Assembly (NCBI GenBank): GCA_035718415.1
Contig: DASTHB010000019.1
Location: 1 to 36,776, forward strand
Length of the DNA: 36,776 nucleotides
Source: Minisyncoccota bacterium
Lineage (GTDB): Bacteria; Patescibacteriota; Minisyncoccia; Phycocordibacterales; Phycocordibacteraceae
Direction: 5' to 3'
The notes under the pieces are model-generated. The model was not told the DNA's origin and did not search any database. It saw nothing but the letters and a program-made list of their open reading frames with translations. The translations under genes and the position numbers were made by a program. Position 1 is the stretch's first letter, and the number at the start of each line of letters is the position of its first letter. This document shows positions 5,507 through 29,769 of the stretch, piece by piece.

Positions 5507-5512
5507 AGGAAA

Positions 5513-5596: not shown

Positions 5597-5605
5597 TTAG
5601 CCAAT

Positions 5606-7354: not shown

Positions 7355-7357
7355 CGT

Positions 7358-12755: not shown

Positions 12756-13082
12756 TCACATCACTTTGTCCGAAAATGATTGCGGGATGAGATGCACGTG
12801 CACATGCGGCACGTCCTTCCCGACGATGGAAAGGCGCACATAATCCGCCTTGTATTTTTCTTTCAGTTCGATCGCGAGCGCGCGACACACCTTGAAGAGA
12901 TCGTTCGCAAGGTCGTCGGGTAGCTGCCAGAACCATTCGTAATGAGCGCTCGGGACCACGAGCGTGTGGCCCGGGCGCACGGGATGCTTGTCGGGGAACG
13001 AGACGATGCTCCCGTTCTCGTGGTGCATTTTTTCGGACGGTATGTCGCCCGCGGCTATCTTGCAGAAGATGCAATCATTCAT
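12756..13082 (-). CDS. HIT-family nucleotide hydrolase/transferase (108 aa)
   Basis: Internal Met of track ORF 12756-13460. The N-terminus is MNDCIFCKIAAGDIPS and the histidine triad is HVHVHLIP. Its stop codon abuts the pgk stop in the palindrome TGATCA (12753-12758). Confidence 0.88.
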   Translation of the reverse strand: MNDCIFCKIAAGDIPSEKMHHENGSIVSFPDKHPVRPGHTLVVPSAHYEWFWQLPDDLANDLFKVCRALAIELKEKYKADYVRLSIVGKDVPHVHVHLIPQSFSDKVM

Positions 13083-13109
13083 GCGCTCCAGCATACCGCA
13101 CCGCTTTGC

Positions 13110-13115
13110 TACAAT
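13110..13115 (+). promoter_or_regulatory. -10 hexamer TACAAT located 9 nt upstream of the recJ ATG
   Basis: The sequence reads TTGCTACAATCGAGGCACC-ATG. The 42-bp recJ/HIT divergent spacer also carries TATGCT (13095-13090) 7 nt upstream of the HIT ATG on the other strand. Confidence 0.4.
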
Positions 13116-13124
13116 CGAGGCACC

Positions 13125-14840
13125 ATGTTCCCGCTCCATGAGCCGATGCCCGATGACGTGCGCGCCGAGCTTTCTGCATATGACGACCTGACGGCCGCGC
13201 TTCTGTGGCGGCGCGGCATGAGAACGCGGGGCGACGCGGAGCGGTTCCTTGCGCCCTCGTATGACGATCATCTCCACGACCCGCTCTCGATGACCGATAT
13301 GAAAAAAGCGGCAGTGCGGCTTGCGCGTGCTGTGACCTCGAACGAGCAGATCGCGGTCTGGAGCGATTATGATTGCGACGGCATCCCGGGTGGCGTTCTC
13401 ATGCACGATTTTTTGAAGAAGTGCGGCGCGACGTTCGAGAACTATATTCCGCACCGGCATCTCGAGGGCTATGGAGTGAACGCGAGCGGGGTGGAGAAGT
13501 TGGCCGCGCGCGGCATCACGCTTCTTTTAACGATCGATTCCGGCATCACGGACCTTGAAGCGGTCGCGCGAGCGAACGAGCTCGGCATGGACGTCATCGT
13601 GACCGATCATCATTTGCCGGGAGCGGAACTGCCTCCGGCCTTCGCGGTCGTCAATCCGAACGCGCGCGCCGATGAGCCGTATCCGTTCAAAGGACTCTGC
13701 GGATCGGGCGTCGCGTGGAAACTCGCGTGCGCGACGCTCGCCGTTTCACCCGAGCTCCGCGCGCGCGTACCGGTCGGCTGGGAGAAGTGGCTCCTCGATA
13801 TGGTCGGGCTCGCGACCATCGCGGACATGGTGCCGCTTTCGGACGAGAACCGCGTGCTCGCAAATTTCGGTCTGCGCGTCATGCGCAAATCGCCGCGCAT
13901 CGGACTTCAGAAATTGCTCCGTGCCTGCCGCGTCGAACAGCGTGCGCTCTCGGAAGATGATGTCGGTTTCATGGTGGCGCCCCGGGTGAACGCCGCAAGC
14001 CGGATGGGAAGCGCCGACGACGCCTTCCGATTGTTCACGACGACGGACGAGTCCGAAGCCGATGCGCTCGCGAAGAAGCTCGAGGCGGCGAATCGAAAGC
14101 GCAAAGCGGAGGCCGGAGCCATCACGCGCGCCGTCCATGCGCGGCTCAAGGAGCGCGAGCTGCGGAGCGTCATCGCGCTCGGGGATCCCGAGTGGCGCCC
14201 CGCGCTGCTCGGACTCGTCGCGAATACGATCGCCGATGAGTACGAACGGCCGGTCTTCTTGTGGGGCCGGGAAGGGAATAATAGTTTGAAGGGATCGGTA
14301 CGCAGCTCAACCGTGCACGCGCTCGAGCTCATGCGCGCTGCTGAGAACATCTTCGCGGATTTCGGCGGCCACGCCGCCGCCGGCGGTTTCACCGTGCTCG
14401 AAACGGAAATACATTTCCTCGAAGACCGGCTGGTCGCGGCGCATGAGCGGTTGTCCGCCTCCGGACGCGTGAGCGATTCGCTCATGCTGCGCGCAGATGC
14501 GATCATCGATATAGCCGAAGCCACCGGCACGATGCTCAAGCACATGGAACGCCTCTCCCCGTTCGGTATGGAGAATCCGAAGCCTTTGTTTCTGGTCCGC
14601 GACGCCCTGGTGAGCTCCGTTTCGCGCTTTGGAAAGAGCGATGAGCATTTGAAGCTTCGCTTCGATGCCGGCGGTCTTGCCGTGGACGGCGTCGCATTCT
14701 TCGCGAAAGGTGCGCTCGCGAGGACCGCTGCGTCGCTCCACCCGGGCTCGAAGGCGCAGGTGCTCGCGCATCTCGAACGCGACTCCTTTTCGCGCGGCAC
14801 ACCGGTGCGATTGCGCCTTGTCGATATCCGCGTAGCATAA
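13125..14840 (+). CDS. recJ: Single-stranded-DNA-specific exonuclease RecJ
   Basis: Internal Met (MFPLHEP) of track ORF 12942-14840. The DHH motifs are VWSDYDCDGI, TIDSGI and IVTDHH. The DHHA1 region is FGGHAAAGG. Confidence 0.9.
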   Translation: MFPLHEPMPDDVRAELSAYDDLTAALLWRRGMRTRGDAERFLAPSYDDHLHDPLSMTDMKKAAVRLARAVTSNEQIAVWSDYDCDGIPGGVLMHDFLKKCGATFENYIPHRHLEGYGVNASGVEKLAARGITLLLTIDSGITDLEAVARANELGMDVIVTDHHLPGAELPPAFAVVNPNARADEPYPFKGLCGSGVAWKLACATLAVSPELRARVPVGWEKWLLDMVGLATIADMVPLSDENRVLANFGLRVMRKSPRIGLQKLLRACRVEQRALSEDDVGFMVAPRVNAASRMGSADDAFRLFTTTDESEADALAKKLEAANRKRKAEAGAITRAVHARLKERELRSVIALGDPEWRPALLGLVANTIADEYERPVFLWGREGNNSLKGSVRSSTVHALELMRAAENIFADFGGHAAAGGFTVLETEIHFLEDRLVAAHERLSASGRVSDSLMLRADAIIDIAEATGTMLKHMERLSPFGMENPKPLFLVRDALVSSVSRFGKSDEHLKLRFDAGGLAVDGVAFFAKGALARTAASLHPGSKAQVLAHLERDSFSRGTPVRLRLVDIRVA

Positions 14841-14844: not shown

Positions 14845-15261
14845 ATGCGTTACACGATCAATGCCGATGGGGGAGCGCGCGGCAATCCGGGGCCCGCGGG
14901 CGCGGGCGCGGTCGTTAAGGATGAGAGGGGACGCATCGTCGCCTCCATCTCCGAGTTCCTCGGCCATGCGACGAATAACGTCGCTGAGTACACGGCGCTC
15001 GTGAGCGCGTTCGATGCGCTTCTCGCGGAACTTCAGGACGCGGCGAAGCATGCGGACGTCGCCGTATTCATGGACAGCAAGCTGGTCATCGAGCAGATGA
15101 AGGGCGCCTGGAAAGTCCGGCATCCGAACATGAAGCCGCTCCAAGCCCGCGCAGCAGAGTCGGCGCGCGCGTTCAAGTCCGTCTCGTTCATGCACATTCC
15201 GCGCGAAAGAAATGCAGAGGCGGATGCGCTTGCGAATGAAGCGATGGACCGCGGCTCATGA
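14845..15261 (+). CDS. rnhA: Ribonuclease HI family protein
   Basis: Motifs are INADGGARGNPGPAGAG, TNNVAEYTAL, FMDSKLV and NAEADALAN, which fit the DEDD pattern. It starts 4 nt after the recJ stop. Confidence 0.85.
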   Translation: MRYTINADGGARGNPGPAGAGAVVKDERGRIVASISEFLGHATNNVAEYTALVSAFDALLAELQDAAKHADVAVFMDSKLVIEQMKGAWKVRHPNMKPLQARAAESARAFKSVSFMHIPRERNAEADALANEAMDRGS

Positions 15262-16757
15262 CGGCGCTCATTTCAGCGGTCGCTGGACTCGCGAGCGGGA
15301 TATTCATCCGCTCGCTTTTTGTTTTCGGGTGGCCGGTACCGGTATTTCTCGGGATCTTGGCTGCGATGTTCACCATCGCGTACCGGCATGCGCCGCGCTT
15401 GTCGTATCTCTTCTCAGCGCTTTTCATTTCCTTCGCCGCGCTCGGCATGCTCCGCACGATCGGCGCGGACGCGCCATTGCCGGCTGATTTTTCTCGCGAC
15501 GTCGGCAACCGAGTTTCGTATGAGGGCGTCGTCATGCGCGATGCCGATGTCCGCGACGCCACGGAGCGTATCGCGGTGCGCGTGCGGTCAGGCGCATCTT
15601 CGGTCGGCATGCTCGTCGTCACGGCGCGGGATGAAAGCGTCCGTGTCGGCGACACCGTTCGCATACGCGGCACGCTCGACATCCCTGAATCGTTCATGGA
15701 TGACAACGGCCGAACATTCCGCTACGACCGCTATCTCCAAAGCGCCGGCATCAGGTACGTGCTTAATTACGCGTCGCTCTCCGTCGTAACGCCGGCGCCG
15801 TGGTACTCGCTCCCATCCGCGTTGTCGCGCGCGAACCGATCCTTCGTTCGCGGCGTCCAGGCGGCGCTCCCCGAACCGCACGCATCGCTTGCAAGCGGCA
15901 TCGTCATCGGCGGGAAGTCTGGGCTTGGCCGCGAACTCCAGGATGAATTCGTGCGCAGCGGCCTCATTCAGATCGTGGTCCTGTCCGGCTATAACGTCAT
16001 GGTCGTCGCGGAATGGGTGATGCTCGTGCTCGCGCGCTTCGCGCTTCCGCGCCGCGCGACTGCCGTCGTCGGCGCGCTTGCGCTTCTTCTTTTCCTCGGT
16101 CTCGCGGGTGGTGGTTCGACCGCCGTCCGGGCGTCCATCATGGCGCTCATCGCGCTCTATGCTCGAGCGACGGGGAAGACATACGCTGCCGGACGAGCGC
16201 TTGCGGTCGCCGTCGTCATCATGCTTCTTCTGAATCCGCTTTATCTCGTATTCGATCCTGGTTTCGGGCTTTCCGTCGCGGCGACAGCCGGACTCATCTG
16301 GTTCGCCGACCCGCTGGCATCATTCCTGTCCCGATTCATATCGGCCCGGTTCTGGCGCGACGCATTAGCAACGACGCTCGCGGCTCAGATGGCCGTGCTG
16401 CCGCTGCTCCTCTATGACACGGGCGTTCTCTCCTTCGCCGCTCTTCCCGCCAACCTGCTCGTGCTTCCCGTCGTACCGCTCGCCATGGGTATGTCTGCGC
16501 TCGCGGGCCTCACCGGCATGGCGTCCTCGCTTCTTCTCCCCACGCTTGCTCCGGTCCTCGGACTTCCGGCATATGCCGCCACAAGCTATGTGCTTTCCGT
16601 GGCCCATTTCGCATCGAACTTCGACCTGAGCGCGCTCATTATCCCGCCGATCCCGTTCGCCTACGTCATGCTCGCGTATGCATTCATGGCCGCGGTATGC
16701 ATCTATGGACCCCGTGGTATGCTCAAAATATCACCGCTATGGCAGCGCTCCACGTAA
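15258..16757 (+). CDS. comEC: DNA internalisation channel protein ComEC/Rec2 (DUF4131 plus Competence domain only, no nuclease domain)
   Basis: It is a polytopic protein of 499 aa. The signature is ASGIVIGGKSGLGRELQDEFVRSGLIQIVVLSGYNV. Its start overlaps the rnhA stop (ATGA at 15258-15261). The protein ends right after the last TM block, without a metallo-beta-lactamase domain. Confidence 0.85.
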   Translation: MTALISAVAGLASGIFIRSLFVFGWPVPVFLGILAAMFTIAYRHAPRLSYLFSALFISFAALGMLRTIGADAPLPADFSRDVGNRVSYEGVVMRDADVRDATERIAVRVRSGASSVGMLVVTARDESVRVGDTVRIRGTLDIPESFMDDNGRTFRYDRYLQSAGIRYVLNYASLSVVTPAPWYSLPSALSRANRSFVRGVQAALPEPHASLASGIVIGGKSGLGRELQDEFVRSGLIQIVVLSGYNVMVVAEWVMLVLARFALPRRATAVVGALALLLFLGLAGGGSTAVRASIMALIALYARATGKTYAAGRALAVAVVIMLLLNPLYLVFDPGFGLSVAATAGLIWFADPLASFLSRFISARFWRDALATTLAAQMAVLPLLLYDTGVLSFAALPANLLVLPVVPLAMGMSALAGLTGMASSLLLPTLAPVLGLPAYAATSYVLSVAHFASNFDLSALIIPPIPFAYVMLAYAFMAAVCIYGPRGMLKISPLWQRST

Positions 16758-18269: not shown

Positions 18270-18512
18270 TTAAACGCGCCCCGCCTTCTTGAGCGCTGCG
18301 TAGGCTCCTTGCTTCTTGATGGTCTTGAGGCCTTTCATCGAAACGAGGGCGATGACCGTCTTCCCGAGCTCGGGAACGTAGATGCGCCGCTTCTGCAGGT
18401 TCGCCTTCCGGCGCACCGCGCCCGTCGGATTGAACTGCGTCGCACGGGTGCGGTTAGAGTACCGCCCGCCGATCTGCGTGCTTTTACCCGTTATTTCGCA
18501 TGAGCGTGCCAT
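18270..18512 (-). CDS. rpmB: 50S ribosomal protein L28 (80 aa)
   Basis: This is the last 80 codons of track ORF 18270-19235. The sequence is MARSCEITGKSTQIGGRYSNRTRATQFNPTGAVRRKANLQKRRIYVPELGKTV. The upstream part of that ORF is antisense to the M50 protease gene. Confidence 0.9.
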   Translation of the reverse strand: MARSCEITGKSTQIGGRYSNRTRATQFNPTGAVRRKANLQKRRIYVPELGKTVIALVSMKGLKTIKKQGAYAALKKAGRV

Positions 18513-18521
18513 AGTCGTCGC

Positions 18522-19181
18522 ATGGTACCATACCCCGTAACAGACGCAAACATGCTCACCGCCCTCACGCTCATCGTCCTCGTGCTCTCCATCATCATCC
18601 ATGAAGTAGCCCACGGGTATGCGGCGAATTCGCTCGGCGACCCCACCGCCCGGCTCGCCGGACGCCTCACCCTGAACCCGGTCCCGCACATCGATCCCAT
18701 GGGATCGGTCGTCATCCCGCTCCTCCTTACGTTCACCCATTCGCCGATATTCTTCGGTTGGGCGAAACCCGTGCCCTACAACCCTTTCAACCTGAAGGAC
18801 CAGCGCTGGGGCGAGGCGAAAGTGGCCGTCGCCGGGAGCGCGGCGAACATCCTCCTCGCCGTCATCTTCGGGCTCATCGTGCGCTACGGGGTATCGCTCC
18901 CGCCCGCCGCAATAAGCCTCGCGGTGAGCATTTCCTTCATTAATCTCTTCCTCGGGGCGTTCAATCTCATCCCGATACCGCCGCTCGACGGGTTCACGGC
19001 GCTCCGTGCGGCCCTGCCTTGGAGCCTGTCGCGGAGCCTTGCGCATCTTGAAGAGCGTGCGCGCGGCGGCGGAGCCGTTACGCTCCTCGTCCTGCTCCTC
19101 CTTTTCTCGTACGTCATCGCCGGACCGTTCTACGCATTCGTGGCGTGGCTCTTCACGCTCCTTACGGGAACCGGTTTCTGA
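18522..19181 (+). CDS. Site-2 protease family (peptidase M50) membrane metalloprotease
   Basis: The HExxH motif IIIHEVAHGYAAN is followed by LTLNPVPHIDPMGS and a late NLIPIPPLDG motif, with multiple TM helices. The start could instead be Met11 (18552). Confidence 0.85.
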   Translation: MVPYPVTDANMLTALTLIVLVLSIIIHEVAHGYAANSLGDPTARLAGRLTLNPVPHIDPMGSVVIPLLLTFTHSPIFFGWAKPVPYNPFNLKDQRWGEAKVAVAGSAANILLAVIFGLIVRYGVSLPPAAISLAVSISFINLFLGAFNLIPIPPLDGFTALRAALPWSLSRSLAHLEERARGGGAVTLLVLLLLFSYVIAGPFYAFVAWLFTLLTGTGF

Positions 19182-19276
19182 CAGGCCGAGCGCCCGACAC
19201 CTGCTTCGTGCGGTATTACCCGTGGGATATGGCATCCATACACACGATGGTAGTGATATAAATCCATCTCACGGGG

Positions 19277-19290: not shown

Positions 19291-19716
19291 ATGGAGTACC
19301 AAGTGCCTCAGTTCATCGAAGTCGAAGATAAGCTCATCGGACCGCTCACGCTTCGCCAATTCATATATTTGGCCGGTGCCGGCGGCATCTGCGTCATCGC
19401 GCTCCTCTATCTGCCGTTCGTCGTCGGACTGCTCGTGGCGCTTCTCGCGGGCGGTTTCGGCGCAGCGCTCGCGTTCTACAAAGTGAACAGCAAGCCGTTC
19501 GTCGAGGTCCTTGAGGACGGTTTCAATTACTACACGCGCTCGAAACTCTTTCTCTGGAAGCATAGCGGCAAGGCTGCCGCCGAGATGAATGCCGCGGCCG
19601 CGGCCGCGGCACAGTCTCCTGAGGCGCTCCGGCCCATCCGCCCGGTCTCCCGGCTCACGAGCGGCAAGCTTTCCGAGCTCGCGTGGTCGCTCGATGTAGA
19701 AAAGGGTACGCAATAA
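19291..19716 (+). CDS. PrgI-family (VirB3-like) small membrane protein
   Basis: The N-terminus YQVPQFIEVEDKLIGPLTLRQFIYLAGAGG is followed by two TM helices, as I recall for the PrgI/VirB3-like family of Gram-positive and CPR T4SS loci. It sits just upstream of a VirB4-type ATPase, and the tail contains a poly-Ala run. Confidence 0.7.
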   Translation: MEYQVPQFIEVEDKLIGPLTLRQFIYLAGAGGICVIALLYLPFVVGLLVALLAGGFGAALAFYKVNSKPFVEVLEDGFNYYTRSKLFLWKHSGKAAAEMNAAAAAAAQSPEALRPIRPVSRLTSGKLSELAWSLDVEKGTQ

Positions 19717-19717: not shown

Positions 19718-20344
19718 ATGGCGACGGCTACCGCAACACCTACGCAACAGTTCGTTCCGGTCAAGGAGATCCGGAACGGGGTCGTCATCCTGAAGGACGG
19801 GAGCTACCGCGGCATTCTCATCTGCTCGTCCATCAATTTCGCGCTTAAGTCGGAGGACGAACAGCACGCCATCACGCTCGGATTCCAGAATTTCCTCAAC
19901 ACGCTCGATTTCTCAATTCAGATCGTGGTGAACTCTCGCCGCATGGACCTCCGCCCGTACCTTGCGCTCCTCGACGCGAAGATGTCCGACCAGAAATCCG
20001 AGCTCATGCGCATCCAGCTCCGCGAATACATGGAATTCATCCGCTCGTTCGCCGATCAGGCGAACATCATGACCAAATCGTTCTATGTCATCGTGTCGTA
20101 CGTGCCGCACATGACCGCCTCGAGCGCCATCGGCTTCTTCAAGAAGGGCGGTACGCCGCCCAAGTCGGCGACGACGTTCGACGAGGAGCGGGCACAGCTC
20201 GAGCAGCGCATGACCTTGGTGGCGAACGGGCTCGCGGGCACCGGCGTCCGGGCCGTCCCGCTTGGAACCGAGGAGATCATCGAACTCCTGTACCGCTCGT
20301 TCAATCCGGGCGAGCTCGAAAACCCTATCCGCCTCGACAAATAA
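19718..20344 (+). CDS. Hypothetical protein resembling a VirB4 N-terminal domain without an ATPase module
   Basis: It starts 1 nt after the prgI-like stop. VVILKDGSYRGILICSSINFALKS and LDFSIQIVVNSRRMDLRPYL parallel LELGEKFVRAFYTISYPRFLS and LDVSIFIHPVDTEQALRTF in the next gene. There is no Walker motif. Confidence 0.5.
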   Translation: MATATATPTQQFVPVKEIRNGVVILKDGSYRGILICSSINFALKSEDEQHAITLGFQNFLNTLDFSIQIVVNSRRMDLRPYLALLDAKMSDQKSELMRIQLREYMEFIRSFADQANIMTKSFYVIVSYVPHMTASSAIGFFKKGGTPPKSATTFDEERAQLEQRMTLVANGLAGTGVRAVPLGTEEIIELLYRSFNPGELENPIRLDK

Positions 20345-20345: not shown

Positions 20346-22169
20346 ATGGCTCTTCTCGATTTTCTCAACAAGAAGAAGCAGAGGGACGAAAATCCGATCG
20401 TACCGGTCCTCCCGAAGGATATTTATACGCAAGGATCGCTCGATCTCGTTGATACCATCGCGCCGACGGCGCTCAAGATAGGCTCGCGAGAACTCGAGCT
20501 CGGTGAGAAATTCGTCCGCGCATTCTATACGATCTCATACCCGCGATTCCTCTCGGACAGCTGGTTCAGCCCGGTCATCAACCTCGATAAAGTGCTCGAT
20601 GTGTCGATCTTCATCCATCCGGTCGATACGGAACAAGCGCTCCGCACGTTCCAGAAGAAGGTCGCCGAAGTGCAGAGCCAGATCAACGAGCGTGAAGCGA
20701 AAGGGCTCGTGCGCGACCCCTTGCTCGACACCGCGTACCAGGATCTGGAGACGCTGCGCGATTCGCTCCAGCAGGTGCAGGAGAAATTGTTCGATGTGGG
20801 GCTCTATCTCGCGCTCTACGGCGACACGAAAGAGGAGATCGAAAAGACGGAAGGGGAGATCCGGAGCGTCCTTGATTCGAAACTCGTGTACACGAAACCC
20901 GCGCTGTTCCAGCAGGAGCAGGGGTTCCGCTCATGCCTCCCGCTCGGTTCCGACGAACTCCTCGTGAACAGCAAGCTCAACTCGTCGCCCTTGTCGTCCA
21001 TATTCCCGTTCGTCTCGTTCGACCTCACCTCCGACCGCGGCATTCTTTACGGCATCAATCGCCACAACTCGTCGCTCATCCTCTTCGATCGCTTCTCGCT
21101 CGAGAACTACAATTCCGTGGTGTTCGCGAAGTCAGGCTCCGGCAAGAGCTACGCGACGAAGCTCGAAATACTGCGGTCGCTCATGTTCAACACCGATGTC
21201 ATCGTCATCGACCCGGAGCGCGAATACGACCAGCTCGCCGAGGCGACGGGCGGACGCTCGTTCCACATCTCGCTTTCGTCCGAGCACCATATCAATCCGT
21301 TCGATCTGCCGCCCGTGCGCAAGGACGAGGACCCGAAAGACATTTTGCGTTCGAACATCATCGCGCTCGTCGGCCTCTTCCGCATCATGCTGGGCGGCCT
21401 CACGCCCGAAGAGGACGCCATCGTCGACCGCGCGATAAGCGAAACGTACGCATTGAAGGACATCACCGGGGATTCGGACTTCACCGGAGCCGAATCACCG
21501 CTCCTCTCCGACTTCGAGCAGGTCCTTTCCGGCATGGAGGGAAGCGAGTCCCTGATCGAGCGGCTTTCGAAATACACGCGCGGCACCTGGCAGGGATTTT
21601 TGAACCAGCCGACGAACATCGACATCAACCAGCAGTTCGTCGTCTTCTCGGTCCGCGACATGGAAGACGAGCTGAAGCCCGTCGCGATGTACATCATCAC
21701 GCACTATATATGGAACGCCGTCCGCCACGAACTGAAGAAGCGCCTCCTTATCATCGACGAAGCGTGGTGGATGATGAAAAGCGAAGATACGGCATCCTTC
21801 CTCTATTCGGTGGCGAAGCGCGGGCGTAAGTACTATCTCGGCGTTCACACCATCACCCAGGACGTCGAGGACTTCCTGAAGAGCCCGTACGGCCGCCCCA
21901 TCCTCACGAACTCATCGCTCCAGCTTCTCTTGAAGCAGTCGCCGACCACGATCGATGTGCTCCAGCAGACCTTCAATCTGACCGATGAGGAAAAATACCT
22001 CTTGCTCGAGGCGGGCGTGGGGGAGGGTCTCTTCTTCGCGGGCCTCAAGCATGTCGCTATCAAGATCGTCGCGAGCTACACCGAGGACCAGATAATCACC
22101 TCCGACCCGTCCCAGCTGCTTGCGATAAAGCAGGAGAAAGACCGCCATGCCGCGCAAGCCGAGCAATGA
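20346..22169 (+). CDS. virB4: VirB4/TrbE/TraC-type type IV secretion ATPase
   Basis: Internal Met (MALLDFLNKKK) of track ORF 20262-22169, starting 1 nt after the upstream stop. Walker A is FAKSGSGKSYATK and Walker B is RLLIIDEAWWMM. VIDPEREY and HTITQDVEDF are also present. Confidence 0.88.
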   Translation: MALLDFLNKKKQRDENPIVPVLPKDIYTQGSLDLVDTIAPTALKIGSRELELGEKFVRAFYTISYPRFLSDSWFSPVINLDKVLDVSIFIHPVDTEQALRTFQKKVAEVQSQINEREAKGLVRDPLLDTAYQDLETLRDSLQQVQEKLFDVGLYLALYGDTKEEIEKTEGEIRSVLDSKLVYTKPALFQQEQGFRSCLPLGSDELLVNSKLNSSPLSSIFPFVSFDLTSDRGILYGINRHNSSLILFDRFSLENYNSVVFAKSGSGKSYATKLEILRSLMFNTDVIVIDPEREYDQLAEATGGRSFHISLSSEHHINPFDLPPVRKDEDPKDILRSNIIALVGLFRIMLGGLTPEEDAIVDRAISETYALKDITGDSDFTGAESPLLSDFEQVLSGMEGSESLIERLSKYTRGTWQGFLNQPTNIDINQQFVVFSVRDMEDELKPVAMYIITHYIWNAVRHELKKRLLIIDEAWWMMKSEDTASFLYSVAKRGRKYYLGVHTITQDVEDFLKSPYGRPILTNSSLQLLLKQSPTTIDVLQQTFNLTDEEKYLLLEAGVGEGLFFAGLKHVAIKIVASYTEDQIITSDPSQLLAIKQEKDRHAAQAEQ

Positions 22170-22746
22170 GCCGCCGCCGAAGGTGATGACCTGGCGGAAA
22201 GCCATGCCCGTCATTCTCGTCGGGTTTGTTTTCGATGCTCTCCGTTTCCTGTTCGAGTGGTTCATCATCGCCGGTCCGGCTATCGGCGCCGCGTTCTGTT
22301 CCTATATCGTCCAGTCCGATAACACCATACTGAACGCGGCAAAGGTCGCATCATGCACCGTCGGCGCTACTGCCGTCGGTATCGTCGCGGCTCCGGCGAT
22401 CGCCGGCTTCGGAGTCATCATGGCCATGGCGGTCGGTTTTCTCGGCTGGTTCTTTATCGGAGGATATCTTTTCATGACCAATCGCCGAATTTTCAAGGAA
22501 AACGCCCTCTGGTTCGTGCTCAGTCTTGTGGTGAGCGAGGTTCCGCTTCTTGGTTCTGTGCCGGCTATCTCGATCACGCTCTGGAAGATGTACCGGACCC
22601 AGATACGGACCGAGCTCGCAGCGCGGAAGCGGTATGACGAGAAGCGGGCTGCGGAAATGGCGCGTCTGGCTCTCGAGAACGCCGCCGAAGCCCAGTACGC
22701 GGCGCAGGCCGCCGAAATCCCCGAAGGGGCGGCACAACCGGCATAA
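22147..22746 (+). CDS. Hypothetical polytopic membrane protein (4-5 TM helices plus an Ala/Glu-rich tail)
   Basis: It overlaps the virB4 3' end by 23 nt, with an alternative start at 22186. Hydrophobic blocks are PVILVGFVFDALRFLFEWFIIAGPAIGAAF, GATAVGIVAAPAIAGFGVIMAMAVGFLGWFFIGGYLF and LWFVLSLVVSEVPLLGSVPAISITLW. Confidence 0.6.
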   Translation: MPRKPSNEPPPKVMTWRKAMPVILVGFVFDALRFLFEWFIIAGPAIGAAFCSYIVQSDNTILNAAKVASCTVGATAVGIVAAPAIAGFGVIMAMAVGFLGWFFIGGYLFMTNRRIFKENALWFVLSLVVSEVPLLGSVPAISITLWKMYRTQIRTELAARKRYDEKRAAEMARLALENAAEAQYAAQAAEIPEGAAQPA

Positions 22747-22775: not shown

Positions 22776-23765
22776 ATGCGACGGCATGTTCTCTCCCTCG
22801 TTCTTCTTCTAGGCATCCTGCCGGGCCTCGCTTCCGCGCAATCGCTCGACCTCGGGGTAAGCGGCGATGCATTCTCCATCTCCGTATTTCCGACACAGCT
22901 CGTGCCGGGGGGCACCGCGACCTTGTCGTTCGTTTCAACGGCCATCGATCTCTCGAGCGCGACGCTCCGGGTGACCGCGAACGGGAGGGAAGTCTATGCG
23001 GGCACCGTGCATGATGTCGACATCGCTCTTCCGAAGGCAGGGTCCGTCACGACCGTCACGGCGACGGTCACCGCGCGCGGTGCGCCGTATACGAAAACCC
23101 TCACGCTTCAACCGCAGGACATCCTCCTTATCGTCGAACCGATCTCGACAGCGCCGGCGCTCTACCCCGGCAAACCGCGCGTCCCGCTTGCCGGCGCTTC
23201 CCGCATCGTCGCCATGACGAGTTTTCGGACCGCCGGAGGGTCGGTCATCGGCCAATCGTCGCTCGCCTACACCTGGACCGTGGACGGGACGAGGATCGCG
23301 AATTCCTCGGGCATCGGCAAAAGCTCCATCATCGTGGCCTCGCCGCTCCAGTACCGCGGTCGAACCGTTTCCGTGGCCGTGTCGACCCAGGATGGAAAAC
23401 TCACGGGCAACGCCTCCTTGTCCATCGCTCCGTACGAACCGACCGTTCGGCTCTATGAGAATGATCCTCTGCTCGGCATACGCTTCGACCGCGCGCTCCC
23501 GGATGCGTACGCGGTCGCCGGCGCGGAGGCCGGGCTTTTCGCAGTCCCATTCTCGTTCGCGAGCGACGGCCATGCACCTTTTATCGAGTGGTTCTTGGAT
23601 GGGGCCTCAGCGCAAACGGGGAACAGCATCACGCTGCGTCCGGCGGGATCGGGAGAAGGAAGCGCCTCATTATCAGCGGTCGTCTCGAAAGGGGAAGCTC
23701 GAGCGACTGACAATCTGCAGATCATTTTCGGCCGAAAATCGGCCCAGAATTTCTTCGGCCTATGA
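22776..23765 (+). CDS. Secreted hypothetical protein with about three beta-sandwich-like segments
   Basis: The Sec signal peptide is MRRHVLSLVLLLGILPGLASA/QS. The sequence is rich in Thr/Ser/Val/Ala, with alternating patterns typical of Ig-like folds. I recognise no family. Confidence 0.6.
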   Translation: MRRHVLSLVLLLGILPGLASAQSLDLGVSGDAFSISVFPTQLVPGGTATLSFVSTAIDLSSATLRVTANGREVYAGTVHDVDIALPKAGSVTTVTATVTARGAPYTKTLTLQPQDILLIVEPISTAPALYPGKPRVPLAGASRIVAMTSFRTAGGSVIGQSSLAYTWTVDGTRIANSSGIGKSSIIVASPLQYRGRTVSVAVSTQDGKLTGNASLSIAPYEPTVRLYENDPLLGIRFDRALPDAYAVAGAEAGLFAVPFSFASDGHAPFIEWFLDGASAQTGNSITLRPAGSGEGSASLSAVVSKGEARATDNLQIIFGRKSAQNFFGL

Positions 23766-24706
23766 AAAAACATCTCATCGTCCTCATCGTCGCCGCGTTC
23801 TTCATCGCCGTTCCGCACGTTTTCGCGCAAGCGGACAATTTCGTGCCCCTCGCCCCGATCTCCGGGCTCACCGACCTTCAGCCGGCTGGCGATAATGTTC
23901 TCGCGACATTTTTCAATAATCTGTATAAATTCCTCATCGGTATCGCTGCCTCGATAGCCGTCATCATGATCATATGGGGCGGTTTCGAATATTCGACCCA
24001 GGACAGCGTTTCGAAGAAGGGAGACGCCAAGAAGCGCATCTATCAGGCACTCTTCGGGCTGCTGCTCGTTCTCTCTCCGGTGCTGGTATTCTCCGTCATC
24101 AACCCGAGCATCCTGAATCTTTCGGTCGGTTTAAAAAAGATCGATCTGACGGTTCCGCAAACGACAACGACAACGAATCCGCGCCCTCCGGTCCAGACAC
24201 CCTCAGGATGTTTGGTGTCCGGGAGTAGTGGGACTGTGCTGCAATATGCGATATGCCCTTCTTCGGATGCAGCAAAGCTTTGGGGTCAAACCTGCACCGA
24301 TAATTTGTCGTCAGTCTATCCCTACACCACGGCGGGGGGAGGTCAGACTTCGCAATATCTCATATTCTGTAGTACGAAAACCGAGTATGTTTTCATTGAA
24401 ACCGTTGGTACGTTCTTGGGAACAATTGAAGGGCTCCAACCATTGGCTAAAACCGACAGTAATCCGAACAATGCCAGCCAAGCGATACAATTTGCGAATC
24501 TCTGCAAGGCAGTCGGTCCTACGTGGGCGACTTGTGTAAGCGACTTAACGGGAACGAGCTTCTCCGTTCCTTGCTCGCCGCCCCCATCAACGCTCATTCC
24601 AGCGGGTCAAGGAAGCGGCAAATGCTATAAAGAAACGTTGACTTGTTTTCAGTCCGCATTGGGCGCTCGGTGCAGCAAAAGTCCGAACTGGGCTCCTTTC
24701 AATTGA
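23762..24706 (+). CDS. T4SS-pilin-like (VirB2/TrbC-type) protein fused to a Cys-rich C-terminal domain
   Basis: The start overlaps the upstream stop (ATGA at 23762-23765). The signal peptide is MKKHLIVLIVAAFFIAVPHVFA. Two hydrophobic helices follow, LYKFLIGIAASIAVIMIIWGG and ALFGLLLVLSPVLVFSVINP, which is the layout of CPR T4SS pilins. A Thr/Pro linker (TVPQTTTTTNPRPPVQTP) leads into a domain of about 165 aa containing 10 Cys. Confidence 0.65.
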   Translation: MKKHLIVLIVAAFFIAVPHVFAQADNFVPLAPISGLTDLQPAGDNVLATFFNNLYKFLIGIAASIAVIMIIWGGFEYSTQDSVSKKGDAKKRIYQALFGLLLVLSPVLVFSVINPSILNLSVGLKKIDLTVPQTTTTTNPRPPVQTPSGCLVSGSSGTVLQYAICPSSDAAKLWGQTCTDNLSSVYPYTTAGGGQTSQYLIFCSTKTEYVFIETVGTFLGTIEGLQPLAKTDSNPNNASQAIQFANLCKAVGPTWATCVSDLTGTSFSVPCSPPPSTLIPAGQGSGKCYKETLTCFQSALGARCSKSPNWAPFN

Positions 24707-24707: not shown

Positions 24708-25922
24708 ATGCGACGCATCTTTATCATCGCCACCATACTCGTGCTTCTTCTCGGAGGCGGCATCGTCGCATACTTCACTCTTCGCGGAGGTCGCCCGACG
24801 GTAACGGTCGCTCTGCAGAATTCAGATACCGGTCTTCCCGTCGCTGGAAAGGGGACCGTGCCGCAACCCGGCGAAGGGAAAAGCGATACCGGCTCGGCGG
24901 CACAACCGTCGCCCTCGCCGGTTCCCGTCACGAGCCGGCTGGTGAAGGTAAGCGCTGGACCGGTCGTTTACGGCCTGTCGATCGTCGACCAGAAGACTGC
25001 TACAGCGAGCTCCTCTCCAACGACGAACGTTTCCTATATCGAACGGCAGAGCGGCAACATTTTTTCGTACAGCGTCCAAACGAGGACGGCGACCCGTACG
25101 AGCAACCGGACCGTTCCGGGCATCCAATCGGCGCTCTGGCATCCAAGCGGCAGCACCGCGTATGTGCGCTATCTTTCGGGAAGCGATTTCTCCACGATCA
25201 ACACCTTCGCCCTTCCCGCAAGCGGTATCGGTGGTTTCTTCCTCCCGCAGAATACGGTCGACCTCGACGTTTCCTCGACGAGCATTCTTATACTCGCCTC
25301 CGGAGTCAATGGTTCGACCGCGACCGTCGCGCGTGTCGACGGCACGCACGCGGTGAGCGCGTTCTCAACGCCGCTCACGTCGATACGCGCCTCGTATTTG
25401 GGTAGATCGCAATATCTCGTCGTCACAAAAGCGACCGCCACGCTTCCCGGCGCTGCATTTGTCGTCGACGCTTCAGGGAGTTTTTCGCGATTGATCGGGC
25501 CTCTTCCGGGGCTGTCCGCCCTTGCAAGCCCTTCGGGCAAATGGGTGTTCGCGACTTACACCTCGGGCAGCGACACGACTTCGGAGCTCGTGAATGTTGC
25601 CACGGGAGACGTGATACCCGTACCGCTCGCAACGCTTGCAGAAAAATGCGCTTGGTCGGCTGATGAGTCTTCTCTCTACTGCGGCGTTCCTCGCACGATG
25701 CTCACGGGTACTTATCCTGACGATTGGTACCAAGGAGTCCTTCATTTCACCGACCGGCTCTGGCGCATTAATGTGGCGGGCCGCTACGCCCAGCTCGTCG
25801 CGGATGTAAGTAATGACGCCGATACGCCTATCGACATCACCTCGCTCACTATCAATCGTTCTGGTACGGTCGTCGCCTTCGTCAATAAGAACGACGCGTC
25901 GCTTTGGGTGTACTCGCTATAG
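24708..25922 (+). CDS. N-terminally membrane-anchored hypothetical protein, probably a beta-propeller ectodomain
   Basis: It starts 1 nt after the upstream stop. The TM helix is IFIIATILVLLLGGGIVAYF, followed by a Pro/Ser linker. The remaining 300 aa or so are Ser/Thr/Val-rich with recurring strand-like blocks (WHPSGSTAYVRY, SPSGKWVFATY, NRSGTVVAFV), reminiscent of TolB-like propellers. Confidence 0.55.
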   Translation: MRRIFIIATILVLLLGGGIVAYFTLRGGRPTVTVALQNSDTGLPVAGKGTVPQPGEGKSDTGSAAQPSPSPVPVTSRLVKVSAGPVVYGLSIVDQKTATASSSPTTNVSYIERQSGNIFSYSVQTRTATRTSNRTVPGIQSALWHPSGSTAYVRYLSGSDFSTINTFALPASGIGGFFLPQNTVDLDVSSTSILILASGVNGSTATVARVDGTHAVSAFSTPLTSIRASYLGRSQYLVVTKATATLPGAAFVVDASGSFSRLIGPLPGLSALASPSGKWVFATYTSGSDTTSELVNVATGDVIPVPLATLAEKCAWSADESSLYCGVPRTMLTGTYPDDWYQGVLHFTDRLWRINVAGRYAQLVADVSNDADTPIDITSLTINRSGTVVAFVNKNDASLWVYSL

Positions 25923-26972: not shown

Positions 26973-27110
26973 TTAGACGGCGAGGCGCTTGCGGCCGCTG
27001 CGGCGGCGTCCTTTGAGTATCTTTTTGCCCGACGCCGACTTTGAGCGGGAGCGGAATCCGTGGGTCTTCGCCCGTTTCCGCTTCTTTGGTTGATAGGTTC
27101 GTTTAGCCAT
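26973..27110 (-). CDS. rpmH: 50S ribosomal protein L34 (45 aa)
   Basis: Too short for the ORF track. Manual reverse translation from the ATG at 27110-27108 gives [45 protein letters not shown], with TAA at 26975-26973. Confidence 0.92.
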
Positions 27111-27123
27111 GTTCGAGTTTTAG

Positions 27124-27132
27124 TTATGCACA
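27124..27132 (+). promoter_or_regulatory. DnaA-box-like 9-mer TTATGCACA in the rpmH-dnaA spacer
   Basis: It matches the consensus TTWTNCACA and lies between the divergent rpmH and dnaA genes. Confidence 0.5.
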
Positions 27133-27188
27133 CAATAGTAACAGTTTCTCCCCGAAAGGCCAGTCTGTCGTGCGGCCTAGAATGCGGG

Positions 27189-27194
27189 TATACT
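27189..27194 (+). promoter_or_regulatory. -10 hexamer TATACT located 9 nt upstream of the dnaA ATG
   Basis: The sequence reads GCGGGTATACTTCCGGCATT-ATG. A second candidate -10, TAGAAT, lies at 27178-27183. Confidence 0.4.
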
Positions 27195-27203
27195 TCCGGC
27201 ATT

Positions 27204-28556
27204 ATGGATAAGCGGAATCCTAAAGAACTCTGGGAATATGTGATGACTCAAGTAGAGCTTTCAATATCCGCTGCAAATTTCAATACGTGGTTCAGGAACA
27301 GCTTCATACAGAAGATCGGGGAGGACGGGGTGGTCTATATCGGGGTGCCAAGCCAGTTCTTCAAGGATTGGTATCTCAAGAAGTTCCACACTCTCCTCTT
27401 GAAGATCCTGCGCGATGTTTCCTATGAATTCCGTAATATCGAATACGTCATCGTCAAAGACGAGCACCGCAAGCAGATAAAGGAAGTGAAGCCGCAGAAG
27501 GCGTCCATAGAGCTCCCGCTTGATGAGTTCTATATCAATAAGAGCGACAATCTCAATCCGCGTTATACGTTCGATACGTTCGTCATCGGTTCGTTCAACA
27601 GCCTTGCGTATGCCGCCGCGCAAGCGGTCCTTGCCAGACCGGGTATCACGTACAACCCGTTATTCATCTATGGCGACACAGGACGAGGGAAGACCCATCT
27701 CATTCAGGCGATCGGGAACGAGTTCAAAAAGAAGTACGCGGGCAGGAAAGTGTTCTATCTCACGTCCGAGAAATTCGTCGTTGACTACACTGATTCGGTC
27801 CAAGCCGGCACCGCGAACCGGTTCAAGGATAAATACCGCCATTACGACCTTCTCATCATGGACGACGTGCAGTTCCTCTCGAAGAAGGAGCGGAGCGAGG
27901 AGGAATTGTTCCACCTCTTCAACGCGCTCCATGATATGAACAAGCAGATCATTTTCTCCTCAGATAGGCCTCCGGTCGCCATCCCGGACATCACTGAGCG
28001 GCTCAAGGGCCGTTTAGCGAGCGGTATGACCGTCGACATAGGGGAGCCCGACTCGGAATCGAGGATGGCTATCATCCAGAAGAAGGCGGCGTTGCATAAT
28101 ATCGTCCTTTCCCCGGACGTCATCGAATATATCGCCACGTCCATGAGCGGTTCGATCCGCGAGCTTGAGGGAATGGTCAATAGCATCATCTGTCACACGC
28201 AAGTGAAAGGTTCCGTTCCGAATATCACCGAGGTGCGCCAATCCATCCGCTCGTTCGTGCGACCCCAAAAGACCATCTCCGTGAAGAACGTCGTCGATAA
28301 GGTCGCCGAGTACTATGGCATCGATGAGGAGAGTATTTATGAGAAGACCCGACGGCGCGAGATCGTCAGACCGCGGCAGGTCATCATGTACCTCTTGCGG
28401 GAGGATTTCAGTATTTCGTACCCGACCATCGGTTCGAAGCTTGGTGGACGCGACCATACGACGGTTATCCACTCGTGCGAGAAGATAAAGAAGGAAATAG
28501 TTGTGGACAATGAACTGGCCAAGGAAATACAGAATATTCGGACGCTCCTTGTATGA
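27204..28556 (+). CDS. dnaA: Chromosomal replication initiator protein DnaA
   Basis: Internal Met (MDKRNPKELWEYV) of track ORF 27060-28556. The upstream part overlaps rpmH. Walker A is GDTGRGKTHL, Walker B is LLIMDDVQF, sensor motifs are present, and the C-terminal DNA-binding region is GSKLGGRDHTTVIHSCEKI. Confidence 0.93.
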   Translation: MDKRNPKELWEYVMTQVELSISAANFNTWFRNSFIQKIGEDGVVYIGVPSQFFKDWYLKKFHTLLLKILRDVSYEFRNIEYVIVKDEHRKQIKEVKPQKASIELPLDEFYINKSDNLNPRYTFDTFVIGSFNSLAYAAAQAVLARPGITYNPLFIYGDTGRGKTHLIQAIGNEFKKKYAGRKVFYLTSEKFVVDYTDSVQAGTANRFKDKYRHYDLLIMDDVQFLSKKERSEEELFHLFNALHDMNKQIIFSSDRPPVAIPDITERLKGRLASGMTVDIGEPDSESRMAIIQKKAALHNIVLSPDVIEYIATSMSGSIRELEGMVNSIICHTQVKGSVPNITEVRQSIRSFVRPQKTISVKNVVDKVAEYYGIDEESIYEKTRRREIVRPRQVIMYLLREDFSISYPTIGSKLGGRDHTTVIHSCEKIKKEIVVDNELAKEIQNIRTLLV

Positions 28557-28668: not shown

Positions 28669-29769
28669 ATGAATATTTCCTTTGAAAAAAAGATATTCTC
28701 TGAAGCTGTTCATATCGTCTCACGCTTCACTGAACGTAAGGCAGGAACGCTCCCTGCGCTCGCGTCGATTCTGATCGTCGCCGGCGATGAGGGTATCAAG
28801 ATGCGCGCGACGAACCTTGAAACGGGCATCGATCTTAAACTTTCAGGAGACCAGAAACTTCCTGGTGTGGTCGCGATACCTGCCGCCATACTGGTCCAAT
28901 TCGCAAGTTCGCTCTCTCCAGAAGGAAAAGTAACGCTCGAACATACGGGAGACATCGTCACGCTGACGAGCAATACAGGGAAAAGCTCCATAAAGACCGT
29001 ACCGTACGATGATTTTCCCTCCATACCGTTCCCAGAGAATCCTAAGAACCGCGTCGTGCTTCCTGGCGTGCTGCTTAAGAATCTCCTGACTTCGATCGCA
29101 TCGGTCGCTTCGACCTCGACCGTCCGCCCTGAGCTCGCGAGCATCTATCTTTCCATCGAAGGAGGAATCCTGACCGCGGTCGCCACAGACTCGTTCCGTC
29201 TTGCTGAGAAGAAAGTGCCGCTCCAAAACAAAGGAACACAAGGGAAGCTCCTCCTGCCAGCAAAGAATGCCGTCGATATCGCGAGCGCGCTTCCGAATGA
29301 TGACATCATCATTTCATTCGACGAACATCAGTGCGCGTTCGTCTCACCGGGCGGCATGATCGTGTCGCGTCTCACGAACGCAGTGTACCCGGACTATCGC
29401 CAGATCATTCCGAAAGAATCGATCGTCGAGGCGACGGTATTGAAGCGTGATTTCGAGAACGCACTCAAACAAGCGTCGATTTTCTCCGATACGTTCCAGA
29501 AAGTGAAAATGAGCTTCGATATGAAGAAGAACACTGTGGCCCTCTTCGCTCAGAATTCCGAGATAGGACAATCTTCAGAAACCATAACCGCTAAAATATC
29601 AGGAAGTCCGCTCGAGCTCTCATTCAATCATCGCTACTTATCTGCAGTGCTTCCGCTCACGCAAGCAGAAAGTATTTCTTTAACTGCTGCCGGCGTCGGT
29701 CGTCCGCTCATCATTAAAGGAGTCGGTGACACCTCTCTTCTTTATTTGGTTTCTCCGATGAACCAATAA
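28669..29769 (+). CDS. dnaN: DNA polymerase III beta sliding clamp
   Basis: It is 366 aa and lies directly downstream of dnaA, with AAGGA upstream. Family-typical segments are TNLETGI, PELASIYLSIEGGILTAVATDSFRLAEK and PDYRQIIP. Confidence 0.92.
   Translation: MNISFEKKIFSEAVHIVSRFTERKAGTLPALASILIVAGDEGIKMRATNLETGIDLKLSGDQKLPGVVAIPAAILVQFASSLSPEGKVTLEHTGDIVTLTSNTGKSSIKTVPYDDFPSIPFPENPKNRVVLPGVLLKNLLTSIASVASTSTVRPELASIYLSIEGGILTAVATDSFRLAEKKVPLQNKGTQGKLLLPAKNAVDIASALPNDDIIISFDEHQCAFVSPGGMIVSRLTNAVYPDYRQIIPKESIVEATVLKRDFENALKQASIFSDTFQKVKMSFDMKKNTVALFAQNSEIGQSSETITAKISGSPLELSFNHRYLSAVLPLTQAESISLTAAGVGRPLIIKGVGDTSLLYLVSPMNQ

Follow-up and report, generated by a model that had tools for sequence, protein, structure and literature searches.

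We describe a gene in a 36,776-nucleotide (nt) stretch of DNA from a Minisyncoccota bacterium (contig DASTHB010000019.1 of assembly GCA_035718415.1, positions 1 to 36,776; we refer to the whole stretch as the window). The gene encodes a pilin of a type IV secretion system (T4SS), and it is the only VirB2-type pilin gene that we found in the origin-proximal, chromosomal, monoderm-type T4SS cluster of Paceibacteria. (Paceibacteria belong to the Patescibacteria, which are also called the candidate phyla radiation or CPR.) In this protein, the pilin core is followed by a disordered linker and then by a module of 167 amino acids (aa) with ten cysteines, and across related species the module is replaced by unrelated modules or is lost. 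We consider it probable that the protein is a modular pilin of the T4SS and that the head it displays serves in recognition and can be exchanged: the invariant core, the disulfide scaffold, the fast-evolving surfaces, and the wholesale exchange all point to a recognition determinant. The T4SS, its origin-proximal site, and its VirB2-like pilins were already published. What appears to be new is the disulfide-rich modules and their cassette-like exchange.

The pilin and its ten-cysteine module

The open reading frame (ORF) at 23762..24706 on the forward strand encodes 314 aa. A first-pass annotation, made from the sequence alone, had proposed that it is a VirB2-type pilin fused by a Thr/Pro linker to a ten-cysteine domain, and we found the ORF, the ten cysteine positions, both hydrophobic stretches, and the linker just as it had given them. 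The cysteines are at residues 150, 165, 178, 203, 248, 258, 271, 288, 295, and 304, and there are none N-terminal to residue 150. Hydropathy analysis identified hydrophobic segments at residues 1-25, 52-77, and 92-124, and the AlphaFold2 model has helices at 2-20, 44-79, and 83-113. The signal peptide is predicted to be cleaved between A22 and Q23, and the mature pilin is predicted to have about 292 aa. The protein can be divided as follows (pLDDT is the predicted local distance difference test, AlphaFold2's confidence score):

23762..23827, forward strand: Sec-type signal peptide, residues 1-22, MKKHLIVLIVAAFFIAVPHVFA (hydrophobic segment 1-25, model helix 2-20)
23828..23890, forward strand: short exposed mature N-terminus, residues 23-43, with an FVPLAPISGLT motif (low to moderate pLDDT)
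23891..24100, forward strand: VirB2-type pilin core, formed by helix 44-79, the polar/basic loop STQDSVSKKGDAKKR, and helix 83-113 (PF18895, AlphaFold2 helices)
24098..24124, forward strand: junction motif INPSILNLS, residues 113-121, the 5' edge of the variable cassette
24125..24202, forward strand: disordered Thr/Pro-rich linker, residues 122-147 (pLDDT below 50 at residues 122-137; length and sequence vary across the family alignment)
24203..24703, forward strand: ten-cysteine alpha/beta module, residues 148-314 (167 aa), tail type T1 (modeled alone; conservation of the ten cysteines)

The Thr/Pro linker proper is TVPQTTTTTNPRPPVQTP (residues 130-147, nt 24149-24202), which lies inside the low-confidence stretch 122-147. 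The ten-residue blocks 121-130 and 131-140 have average pLDDT values of 41 and 44.

An alignment of 66 homologues identifies the pilin core as the best-conserved region of the protein. Outside the core, K3 and A22 of the signal peptide are kept in at least 90% of the homologues, and F27, I33, L36, and T37 of the mature N-terminus are invariant. At the junction motif, eight of the nine residues are invariant; the exception is position 116, where S is the residue found most often (72% of 61 loci). The synonymous sites of the INPSILNLS codons vary freely, so the junction is conserved at the protein level only. The motif ends in an N-L-S sequon, and it might serve in packing, as a site of processing, or as a site of glycosylation.

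The N-terminal half had been taken to be a T4SS pilin, and this was borne out: residues 45-109 match the T4SS_pilin family (PF18895) with 37.0 bits, as compared to a curated cut-off of 26.6, and there is a VirB4 gene three genes upstream. The match to the TrbC/VirB2 family (PF04956) has 25.7 bits, which is slightly below the cut-off of 27.9; this cut-off was reached by 2 of the 10 homologues that we scanned (P0041 with 30.2 bits and P0083 with 27.9 bits). A pilin-like family from integrative and conjugative elements of Mycoplasma also matched below its threshold. The protein has the signal peptide and the two hydrophobic helices with a short basic loop that characterize VirB2/TrbC pilins. Those pilins are small single-domain proteins (about 70-110 aa when mature), and ours differs from them by its extra 167-aa domain. 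The orthologues that lack a tail (140-168 aa) do fit the size of a small single-domain pilin.

When modeled alone (with 36 homologues), the ten-cysteine domain had a pLDDT of 91.1 and a pTM (predicted template modeling score) of 0.87. These models agree with the earlier proposal of a distinct C-terminal domain: it is predicted to be compact, scaffolded by cysteines, and set behind a disordered linker. We found 529 homologues by searching 5.8 billion protein clusters, and many of the best 120 of these are full-length (310-320 aa, 40-54% identity) with the same cysteine spacing. More than 100 full-length homologues keep the ten-cysteine pattern. In the alignment of 66 homologues, nine of the cysteines never vary, and at least 90% of the sequences have the tenth. 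Furthermore, all ten are intact in 147 of 151 full-length copies of the domain, at a mean column identity of about 35%. Presumably, these near-invariant cysteines form five disulfides. One homologue lacks both C258 and C304, which is the sole hint as to how they pair. Besides the cysteines, conservation is focused on QPLA...NPNNG...QF..C (residues 226-248), and the most variable segments are 177-221 and 252-281.

The domain appears to have no known relatives outside of this family. A profile search of PDB found no relative of the pilin by sequence. Comparing structures with Foldseek, the full model had no match in PDB or BFVD at E ≤ 1e-3, and the domain-only model had no match in PDB at this threshold (the best hit had E = 0.44, and template modeling scores were at most 0.23). 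So the search for fold or sequence relatives that had been suggested for this domain recovered no PDB or viral fold, and we provisionally describe the domain, as compared with PDB and BFVD, as being without a known fold. An exhaustive HMMER search with a profile of the domain against 1.84 billion cluster representatives found only 69 proteins. All of the matches of at least 215 aa also carry the pilin core, except for weak repeat matches in P0157 and P0163; the rest are short fragments. By this census, the domain appears to be lineage-restricted and to exist solely as a pilin tail. We rejected an internal duplication as its origin (comparing the first half to the second half with hhalign gave a probability of 0.3%). 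The closest database match of this pilin is 76% identical in the core and 54% identical in the tail, and no close relative is available to date its tail.

To place the gene in its context, we considered 80 related loci from different GTDB species, with up to 8 kb on either side. The neighbors of the pilin in the window are:

19291..19716, forward strand: PrgI/VirB3-like T4SS membrane protein (PF12666 PrgI, 37.4 bits, cut-off 27); syntenic in 63 of 78 loci, the rest being incomplete loci
19718..20344, forward strand: conserved 208-aa protein just upstream of VirB4; no Pfam match; in place in 66 loci
20346..22169, forward strand: VirB4-like conjugal-transfer ATPase of the monoderm (CD1110) type (NF045971, 384 bits, cut-off 325; PF19044, PF12846)
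22147..22746, forward strand: conserved multi-pass membrane protein; no significant family match; syntenic in 75 loci
22776..23765, forward strand: conserved secreted protein before the pilin, with a 4-nt overlap with the pilin start; signal-like N-terminus; Ig-like matches weak and sub-threshold; in 77 loci
24708..25922, forward strand: conserved membrane-anchored or secreted protein after the pilin; its start is the 3' edge of the variable cassette; in 73 loci

PrgI lies five genes upstream of the pilin, and VirB4 is kept in 72 of the 78 loci (the rest are incomplete). Directly downstream of the T4SS cluster are yidC, rnpA, dnaA, and dnaN. The order of M50 peptidase, PrgI, 208-aa protein, VirB4, multi-pass membrane protein, secreted protein, pilin, secreted protein, yidC, rnpA, dnaA, and dnaN is common to essentially all 78 loci from other species. 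This invariant gene order implies that the pilin genes are positional orthologues. The 208-aa protein is possibly a TrsD-like component, judging from its position and from the published clusters (PMC12102498) rather than from any TrsD profile. With its monoderm VirB4, its PrgI, and the adjacent, putatively TrsD-like gene, the cluster resembles the MPF-FATA-like T4SS of Patescibacteria (MPF is short for mating-pair formation; PMC12102498). It also shares the chromosomal location beside dnaA and dnaN and, within 36.8 kb, the lack of a nearby relaxase or coupling protein: no relaxase or type IV coupling protein family was found among the window's ORFs that we scanned with Pfam (most of those of at least 100 aa).

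A hidden Markov model (HMM) of the pilin core matches only this ORF in the window, and it matches once per locus in 79 of the 80 related loci. Thus, the suggestion that this protein might be a tip or minor variant is not favored, as the cluster has no other pilin gene, either here or in almost all of the related loci. As for unfused pilins, there are none in the window besides this ORF, but at the level of the family there are tail-less orthologues at the same locus.

The other locus, L045, is the sole related locus with two tandem pilins (672-2621), which have like cores and different classes of tail (with 4 and 8 cysteines). This tandem may stand midway between the form with a single gene and the arrays of pilins that other CPR classes have. 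We also noticed that VirB4 is 91-99% identical (at the amino acid level) between GTDB species whose neighboring genes reach only 60-89%, and that VirB4 has 1.95 bits per residue as compared to 1.76 for DnaA.

Replacement of the module in related loci

The HMM for the ten-cysteine domain matches only inside the pilin ORF, both in the window and in the roughly 33 of 80 loci that have a match at E ≤ 1e-3. To describe the tails more broadly, we clustered 78 of them (including the window's) with BLAST and obtained 25 clusters. Class T1, which is the ten-cysteine domain, is the commonest, with 39 of the 78 tails; it includes copies that are more divergent than those found with the HMM. The other tails comprise at least 20 other classes of 80-265 aa with 2-16 cysteines, plus short cysteine-poor tails of 35-75 aa. 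The tail of locus L063 has just 7 aa, which is below the length for clustering. No profile-level similarity was detected among the eight largest classes. In particular, we rejected the idea that the short tails with 4-8 cysteines are truncated forms of the ten-cysteine domain: hhalign gave probabilities of at most 1.5% for seven classes against the domain or its halves. Where a pilin gene lacks a tail, the next gene begins 1-4 nt past the stop codon, so these tail-less orthologues are genuine.

The classes of tail do not follow the phylogeny of the secretion system. On a neighbor-joining tree of VirB4, they are interleaved, and sister taxa often have different classes. The clearest cases are pairs of closely related loci. 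For example, L028 and L022 are 99% identical in VirB4, 98% identical in the pilin core, and 89-91% identical in the upstream protein, while their tails are 27-32% identical. At the DNA level, the 3.4 kb that lead up to where the core ends are 80-99% identical; identity then falls to 29-47% in the tail and is back at 94% right after the stop codon. The same collapse and recovery of identity is seen in the pairs L040/L059, L071/L069, and L061/L060, and in a weaker form in L076/L036. In a control pair (L039/L050), 70-91% identity is retained in the tail. More broadly, there are 64 pairs of loci whose upstream genes are at least 70% identical, and in 60 of these pairs the tails are less than 40% identical. 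We read this pattern in close pairs as the signature of cassette replacement, with one breakpoint at the INPSILNLS junction and the other where the downstream gene starts.

The comparison of orthologues that the first-pass annotation had recommended therefore found a tail that is both variable and replaced. Its idea of a swappable specificity module gains support at the level of the family, where one core bears at least 20 unrelated tails or none and where tails are sharply replaced between close relatives; that the module determines binding specificity is suggested by this pattern.

Cysteine-rich modules are not confined to the C-terminus. In 15 orthologues, a second one, with 2-13 cysteines and 45-154 aa, follows the signal peptide and precedes the core, at the protein's other exposed end. 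(Such loci include L004, L026, L027, L031, L032, L040, L048, L057, L059, L065, L067, L069, L071, and L074.)

We considered several dedicated mechanisms for generating this diversity and rejected them. Mutagenesis by a diversity-generating retroelement is not indicated, as no direct or inverted repeat anywhere in the window involves 24150-24706 and no reverse transcriptase family was found among the scanned ORFs. Silent cassettes of the pilE/pilS type are not indicated either, as the HMM for the C-terminal domain matches the pilin ORF alone, in the window and in the 80 loci. And the DNA of the junction is not a dedicated recombination signal, given how freely it varies at synonymous sites. We also scanned IMG/VR with a pattern of the pilin core, and no relative turned up there.

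Possible function and rival explanations

If the protein is a modular pilin, it would first be exported by the Sec system and its signal peptide would be removed. The core (helix, basic loop, and helix) would insert in the membrane, and by analogy with VirB2, TraA, and TrbC, the VirB4-powered machine would extract it and polymerize it. In the VirB2 family, the helical hairpin has both of its termini on the outside of the membrane and, in the pilus, on its outer surface. With both ends of the hairpin facing outward, the linker and the 167-aa module would be displayed outside of the cell, and if the subunit builds a filament, the modules would be on its outer face. Because this is the only pilin gene in the cluster, such a filament, if it is made, probably consists of this subunit.

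The pattern of variation suggests what the module might do. The core and the cysteine scaffold are under strong purifying selection, and the remainder of the module evolves fast. Among positional orthologues, the whole tail has been replaced repeatedly, by a deeply divergent allele or by an unrelated cysteine-rich module, or it has been lost. Most likely, the module would decide what the filament or the cell surface binds, that is, the host or partner cell of an episymbiont. Host range might drive its diversification, as might enemies for which the pilus is a receptor, or both might do so. New heads could be supplied by recombination between strains, plausibly after natural transformation: Patescibacteria are naturally transformable (PMC12857230), and the window encodes ComEC and type IV pilus genes, which makes this a plausible route of exchange.

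Several observations weigh against a modular pilin with a recognition head. TrbC and VirB2 lose C-terminal residues when they mature (the C-terminus is trimmed and the chain is cyclized), and the mature form of our protein, too, may lack the tail; its polymerization is a prediction. Searching PDB by sequence or with Foldseek did not bring up any solved pilin of the VirB2, TraA, or Ced kind, so it is the Pfam profiles that argue for homology to pilus-forming pilins. We found no ligand, lectin-like fold, or other functional signature in the domain, and no thiol-oxidoreductase (Dsb or VKOR) among the scanned ORFs of the window. The VirB4 tree was built by neighbor joining and has no support values. 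Our analysis covers 36.8 kb of this genome and 8-kb flanks in its relatives, and a tail-less major pilin or silent cassettes might be encoded elsewhere.

Another difficulty is that a 167-aa head on every subunit would be crowded. The F pilus has a diameter of about 87 Å and five subunits per rise of about 12 Å. With these dimensions, a rough calculation gives about 700 Å² per subunit at the wall of the pilus, which would be too little for an 18-kDa head. At a radius that is 30 Å larger, which a linker of about 26 residues could reach, there would be more than 1,100 Å² per subunit, and a brush of heads would be feasible by this estimate. A more specific proposal is that every subunit of a VirB2 filament bears an exchangeable, disulfide-locked head of an unseen fold, and that the specificity of this brush of recognition domains is reprogrammed by swapping a single cassette (from INPSILNLS to the next gene) via recombination with DNA acquired by transformation. 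We put this forward tentatively, as a possibility that we hold to be less likely than not.

Alternatively, the hairpin might be a two-helix anchor that does not polymerize, and the protein might be a surface receptor or adhesin located close to the T4SS channel or right at it, like the surface adhesins of Gram-positive conjugation systems. In general, T4SSs of the monoderm (MPF-FATA) type have no pili and rely on surface adhesins instead (PMC12102498; PMC12857230), and an anchor would be consistent with the failure to recover a solved pilus subunit by sequence or by fold. It would also avoid the steric awkwardness of a bulky head on each subunit, and the long Thr/Pro linker would suit a stalk that crosses the cell wall. 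However, the core is conserved far beyond the needs of an anchor (as with the eight invariant residues of INPSILNLS) and it matches pilin profiles. Furthermore, the tail-less orthologues of 140 aa at the same locus would be anchors with nothing to hold, and pilin genes are essential in Southlakia, whose T4SS is the only one from Patescibacteria to have been tested (Wang et al. 2023, PMC10633639). Overall, we think that an anchor is unlikely, although it is the strongest of the alternatives to a modular pilin.

The tail could also be a structural accessory that stabilizes or spaces the filament, helps it to cross or attach to the cell wall or the S-layer, or shields it from proteases; its variation would then reflect neutral drift along with escape from phages or predators. 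A disulfide scaffold does suggest robustness outside of the cell, there is no recognizable binding fold, and pili are common receptors for phages. But a tail that is replaced by unrelated modules, and that is completely lost in some species, is unlikely to be an indispensable structure, and sharp breaks in near-identical backgrounds look like selection for novelty rather than drift. Escape from enemies is, in any case, compatible with a modular pilin whose head is a recognition determinant. We view a purely structural role as quite unlikely.

We give somewhat less credence still to the proposal that the tail is cleaved off during maturation and acts, once released, as a disulfide-rich secreted effector or signal, for which the core would be a carrier for export. 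The invariant INPSILNLS is exactly at the junction of core and tail, where a processing site might be expected; the C-terminal processing of TrbC and VirB2 is established; and small secreted cysteine-rich proteins are often effectors. On the other hand, the protein already has a Sec signal peptide, so that a carrier would be unnecessary, and the domain never occurs as a stand-alone gene among the 1.84 billion cluster representatives. Nor is a protease gene conserved in the cluster; the nearest candidate is the M50 peptidase upstream of PrgI.

The remaining question is whether the module is native to this gene. It had been described as visibly more AT-rich than the pilin half, and this is true of synonymous sites but hardly of total GC content, which is 0.526 in the pilin half and 0.508 in the C-terminal part, a difference of 1.8 points (the window's mean is 0.593). 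The shift is in the third positions of codons, whose GC content (GC3) falls from 0.705 in residues 1-129 to 0.503 in residues 148-314 (Fisher p = 5e-4). Given the domain's own amino acids and the codon usage of the window, its expected GC3 is 0.777, so that its z score is -8.8, as compared to -1.5 for the core. Stretches of 166 codons from the other genes of the window have a mean GC3 of 0.767 ± 0.061 and a minimum of 0.56, and none is as low as the domain. This shift in GC3 is far beyond chance.

The same shift is found across the family. Among 69 pilin genes, the mean GC3 is 0.41 in the tail, 0.62 in the core, and 0.56 in the flanking genes, and the tail is lower than the core in 67 of the 69 (Wilcoxon p = 9e-13), over backgrounds that range in GC3 from 0.25 to 0.81. 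When regressed on this background, the GC3 of the tail has a slope of 0.48 and that of the core has a slope of 0.89, and the two lines cross at a background of about 0.26. In 14 of 15 loci, the N-terminal cysteine-rich modules, too, have a lower GC3 than the core. The two neighboring secreted proteins are not GC3-poor (0.58 and 0.57 in the related loci). Across 52 loci, dnaA and dnaN have GC3 of 0.47 and 0.37, versus 0.66 for VirB4; in the window, dnaA (27060-28556) and dnaN (28669-29769) are at 0.68 and 0.57, versus about 0.77 for other genes. As dnaA and dnaN are vertically inherited and are also GC3-poor, low GC3 alone is not a sign of foreign origin. Rather, the low GC3 of the tail is a family-wide signature of exposed, exchangeable modules and not of a recent foreign insertion.

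Although no stretch of the window is as atypical in GC3 and codon usage as residues 148-314, we regard it as very improbable that, in this genome, an ordinary pilin recently received the domain as a graft of foreign DNA: more than 100 homologues have the full architecture with the same ten cysteines in identical synteny, the drop in GC3 recurs in nearly all of the orthologous pilin genes and in dnaA and dnaN, the tail is at most 54% identical to any homologue in the databases and hence has no identifiable donor, and a conserved, vertically inherited full-length protein in relatives is what the first-pass annotation had itself named as counting against a graft.

We see four candidate causes for the deficit in GC3, and our data do not discriminate among them. 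First, cassettes might flow in from a low-GC pool and be partially ameliorated. Second, hypervariable DNA might escape homologous recombination and, with it, GC-biased gene conversion. Third, selection for accurate translation might be weaker at variable residues. Fourth, there might be selection for slow translation that aids oxidative folding.

Elsewhere in the window, a set of type IV pilus and competence genes (5606-8575, 8888-10833, and 34401-36116) includes a PilB-like ATPase and PilC (T2SSF). The two ORFs downstream of PilC have no Pfam match, and the first of them has a prepilin-like motif, GFTLLE. A second T2SSE ATPase paralogue is on the opposite strand (250-nt inverted match, 74%). 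ComEC (15258-16757) and RecJ (12942-14840) sit between the type IV pilus set and the T4SS set. At 18270-19235 on the reverse strand is a 321-aa ORF whose sole Pfam match is ribosomal protein L28 (residues 244-308) and which overlaps the M50 peptidase gene (18522-19181) on the opposite strand; this ORF is probably over-extended at its 5' end, and the true rpmB is probably short. Between nusA (reverse strand) and the PilB-like ATPase (forward strand), there are about 590 nt without a gene (5010-5605), which overlap the 500-nt windows of lowest GC content (0.45-0.47). No tRNA, Rfam family, or convincing ORF was found in this interval, and ARAGORN and Rfam found no RNA genes in the window.

Known systems and significance

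The nearest known relatives are the other T4SS pilins of Patescibacteria. A chromosomal T4SS that is origin-proximal, lacks a relaxase, is of the monoderm type, and has VirB2-like pilins has been described in this group (PMC12102498; reviewed in PMC12857230). The published pilins, most of them from Saccharimonadia and Microgenomatia, are small, and 2-11 divergent paralogues form an array (Quinonero-Coronel et al. 2025, PMC12102498; PMC10633639). Our pilin shares with them the PF18895/PF04956 core, the monoderm VirB4, PrgI/VirB3, the putatively TrsD-like gene, and the site next to dnaA and dnaN. In contrast, there is one gene per locus here, and diversity resides in a large, disulfide-rich C-terminal cassette (and in some species in an N-terminal one as well). 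We did not find a description in the literature of large disulfide-rich modules on VirB2-type pilins or of their cassette-like exchange. The word "disulfide" is absent from PMC12102498, which uses "cysteine" once (for VirB1), and neither word is in the main text of PMC10633639. A recent preprint reports that 69 freshwater-specific structure clusters carry PF18895 (10.1101/2025.04.23.650224). It does not interpret these clusters as tail variants, but they fit with there being many tails on one core.

The closest analogy in design is with the modular type IV pilins PilB and PilC of Streptococcus sanguinis, which carry a vWA module (von Willebrand factor type A) and a lectin module, respectively (Raynaud et al. 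2021, PMC8179133). In both systems, a small pilin is joined by a linker to a bulky adhesion module that is presented by a filament (here, residues 44-113, 122-147, and 148-314, in so far as ours is presented in this way), and many kinds of module are found on one kind of core. This is an analogy of design only, because the superfamilies are unrelated: the signal peptide of type IV pilins is of class III (a short leader that ends in Gly and is removed by prepilin peptidase), and a single N-terminal helix, the hydrophobic alpha-1N helix, comes after it, whereas ours has a Sec signal and a VirB2 hairpin. Indeed, MKKHLIVLIVAAFFIAVPHVFA is followed by Q, there is no motif of the G/FTLIE type, and no type IV pilin family in Pfam matches. 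Also, the modular type IV pilins are minor and probably tip subunits that accompany a major pilin, whereas ours is the only pilin gene in its cluster, and our module matches no known domain.

As compared to VirB2, TrbC, and TraA (of the Ti plasmid, RP4, and F), our pilin has the same signal peptide, two helices with a basic loop, presumably outward-facing termini, and association with a VirB4 cluster. Those proteins are about 70-110 aa when mature and have no extra domain, whereas ours continues for about 190 residues after the second helix. Two other systems of pilin variation are worth comparing. Like PilE of Neisseria, our pilin has a conserved core for assembly and an exposed, cysteine-framed, hypervariable C-terminus in which recombination, and not point mutation, brings about change. 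Bartonella and Anaplasma have arrays of VirB2 paralogues. Unlike these systems, ours has no silent cassettes or paralogues in the window or in the 8-kb flanks of the 80 loci, aside from the tandem in L045. So within the regions covered, exchange appears to take place between strains or lineages and not within a genome. Also unlike PilE, the replaced units include unrelated folds and complete loss.

Much of bacterial diversity belongs to the Patescibacteria, whose members are believed to live on other cells, attached to them. In the single species that was tested, both the chromosomal T4SS and its pilins are essential (PMC10633639). The locus that we describe is a concrete candidate, not described before, for how a T4SS contacts its target. 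It extends the principle of the modular pilin, which so far was known from type IV pili, to the unrelated VirB2 family, and it adds a confidently modeled domain that has no relative in PDB. It is also a clean case in which a strong codon anomaly is a family-wide property of exposed modules and not the result of recent horizontal transfer. The classes of tail could be used to mark the strain or host type in metagenomes. And if every subunit does carry its own head, as in the brush proposed above, then this locus would be the main genetic determinant of the choice of host cells to which a Paceibacteria episymbiont can attach, and its product would be the first modular major pilin among T4SSs.

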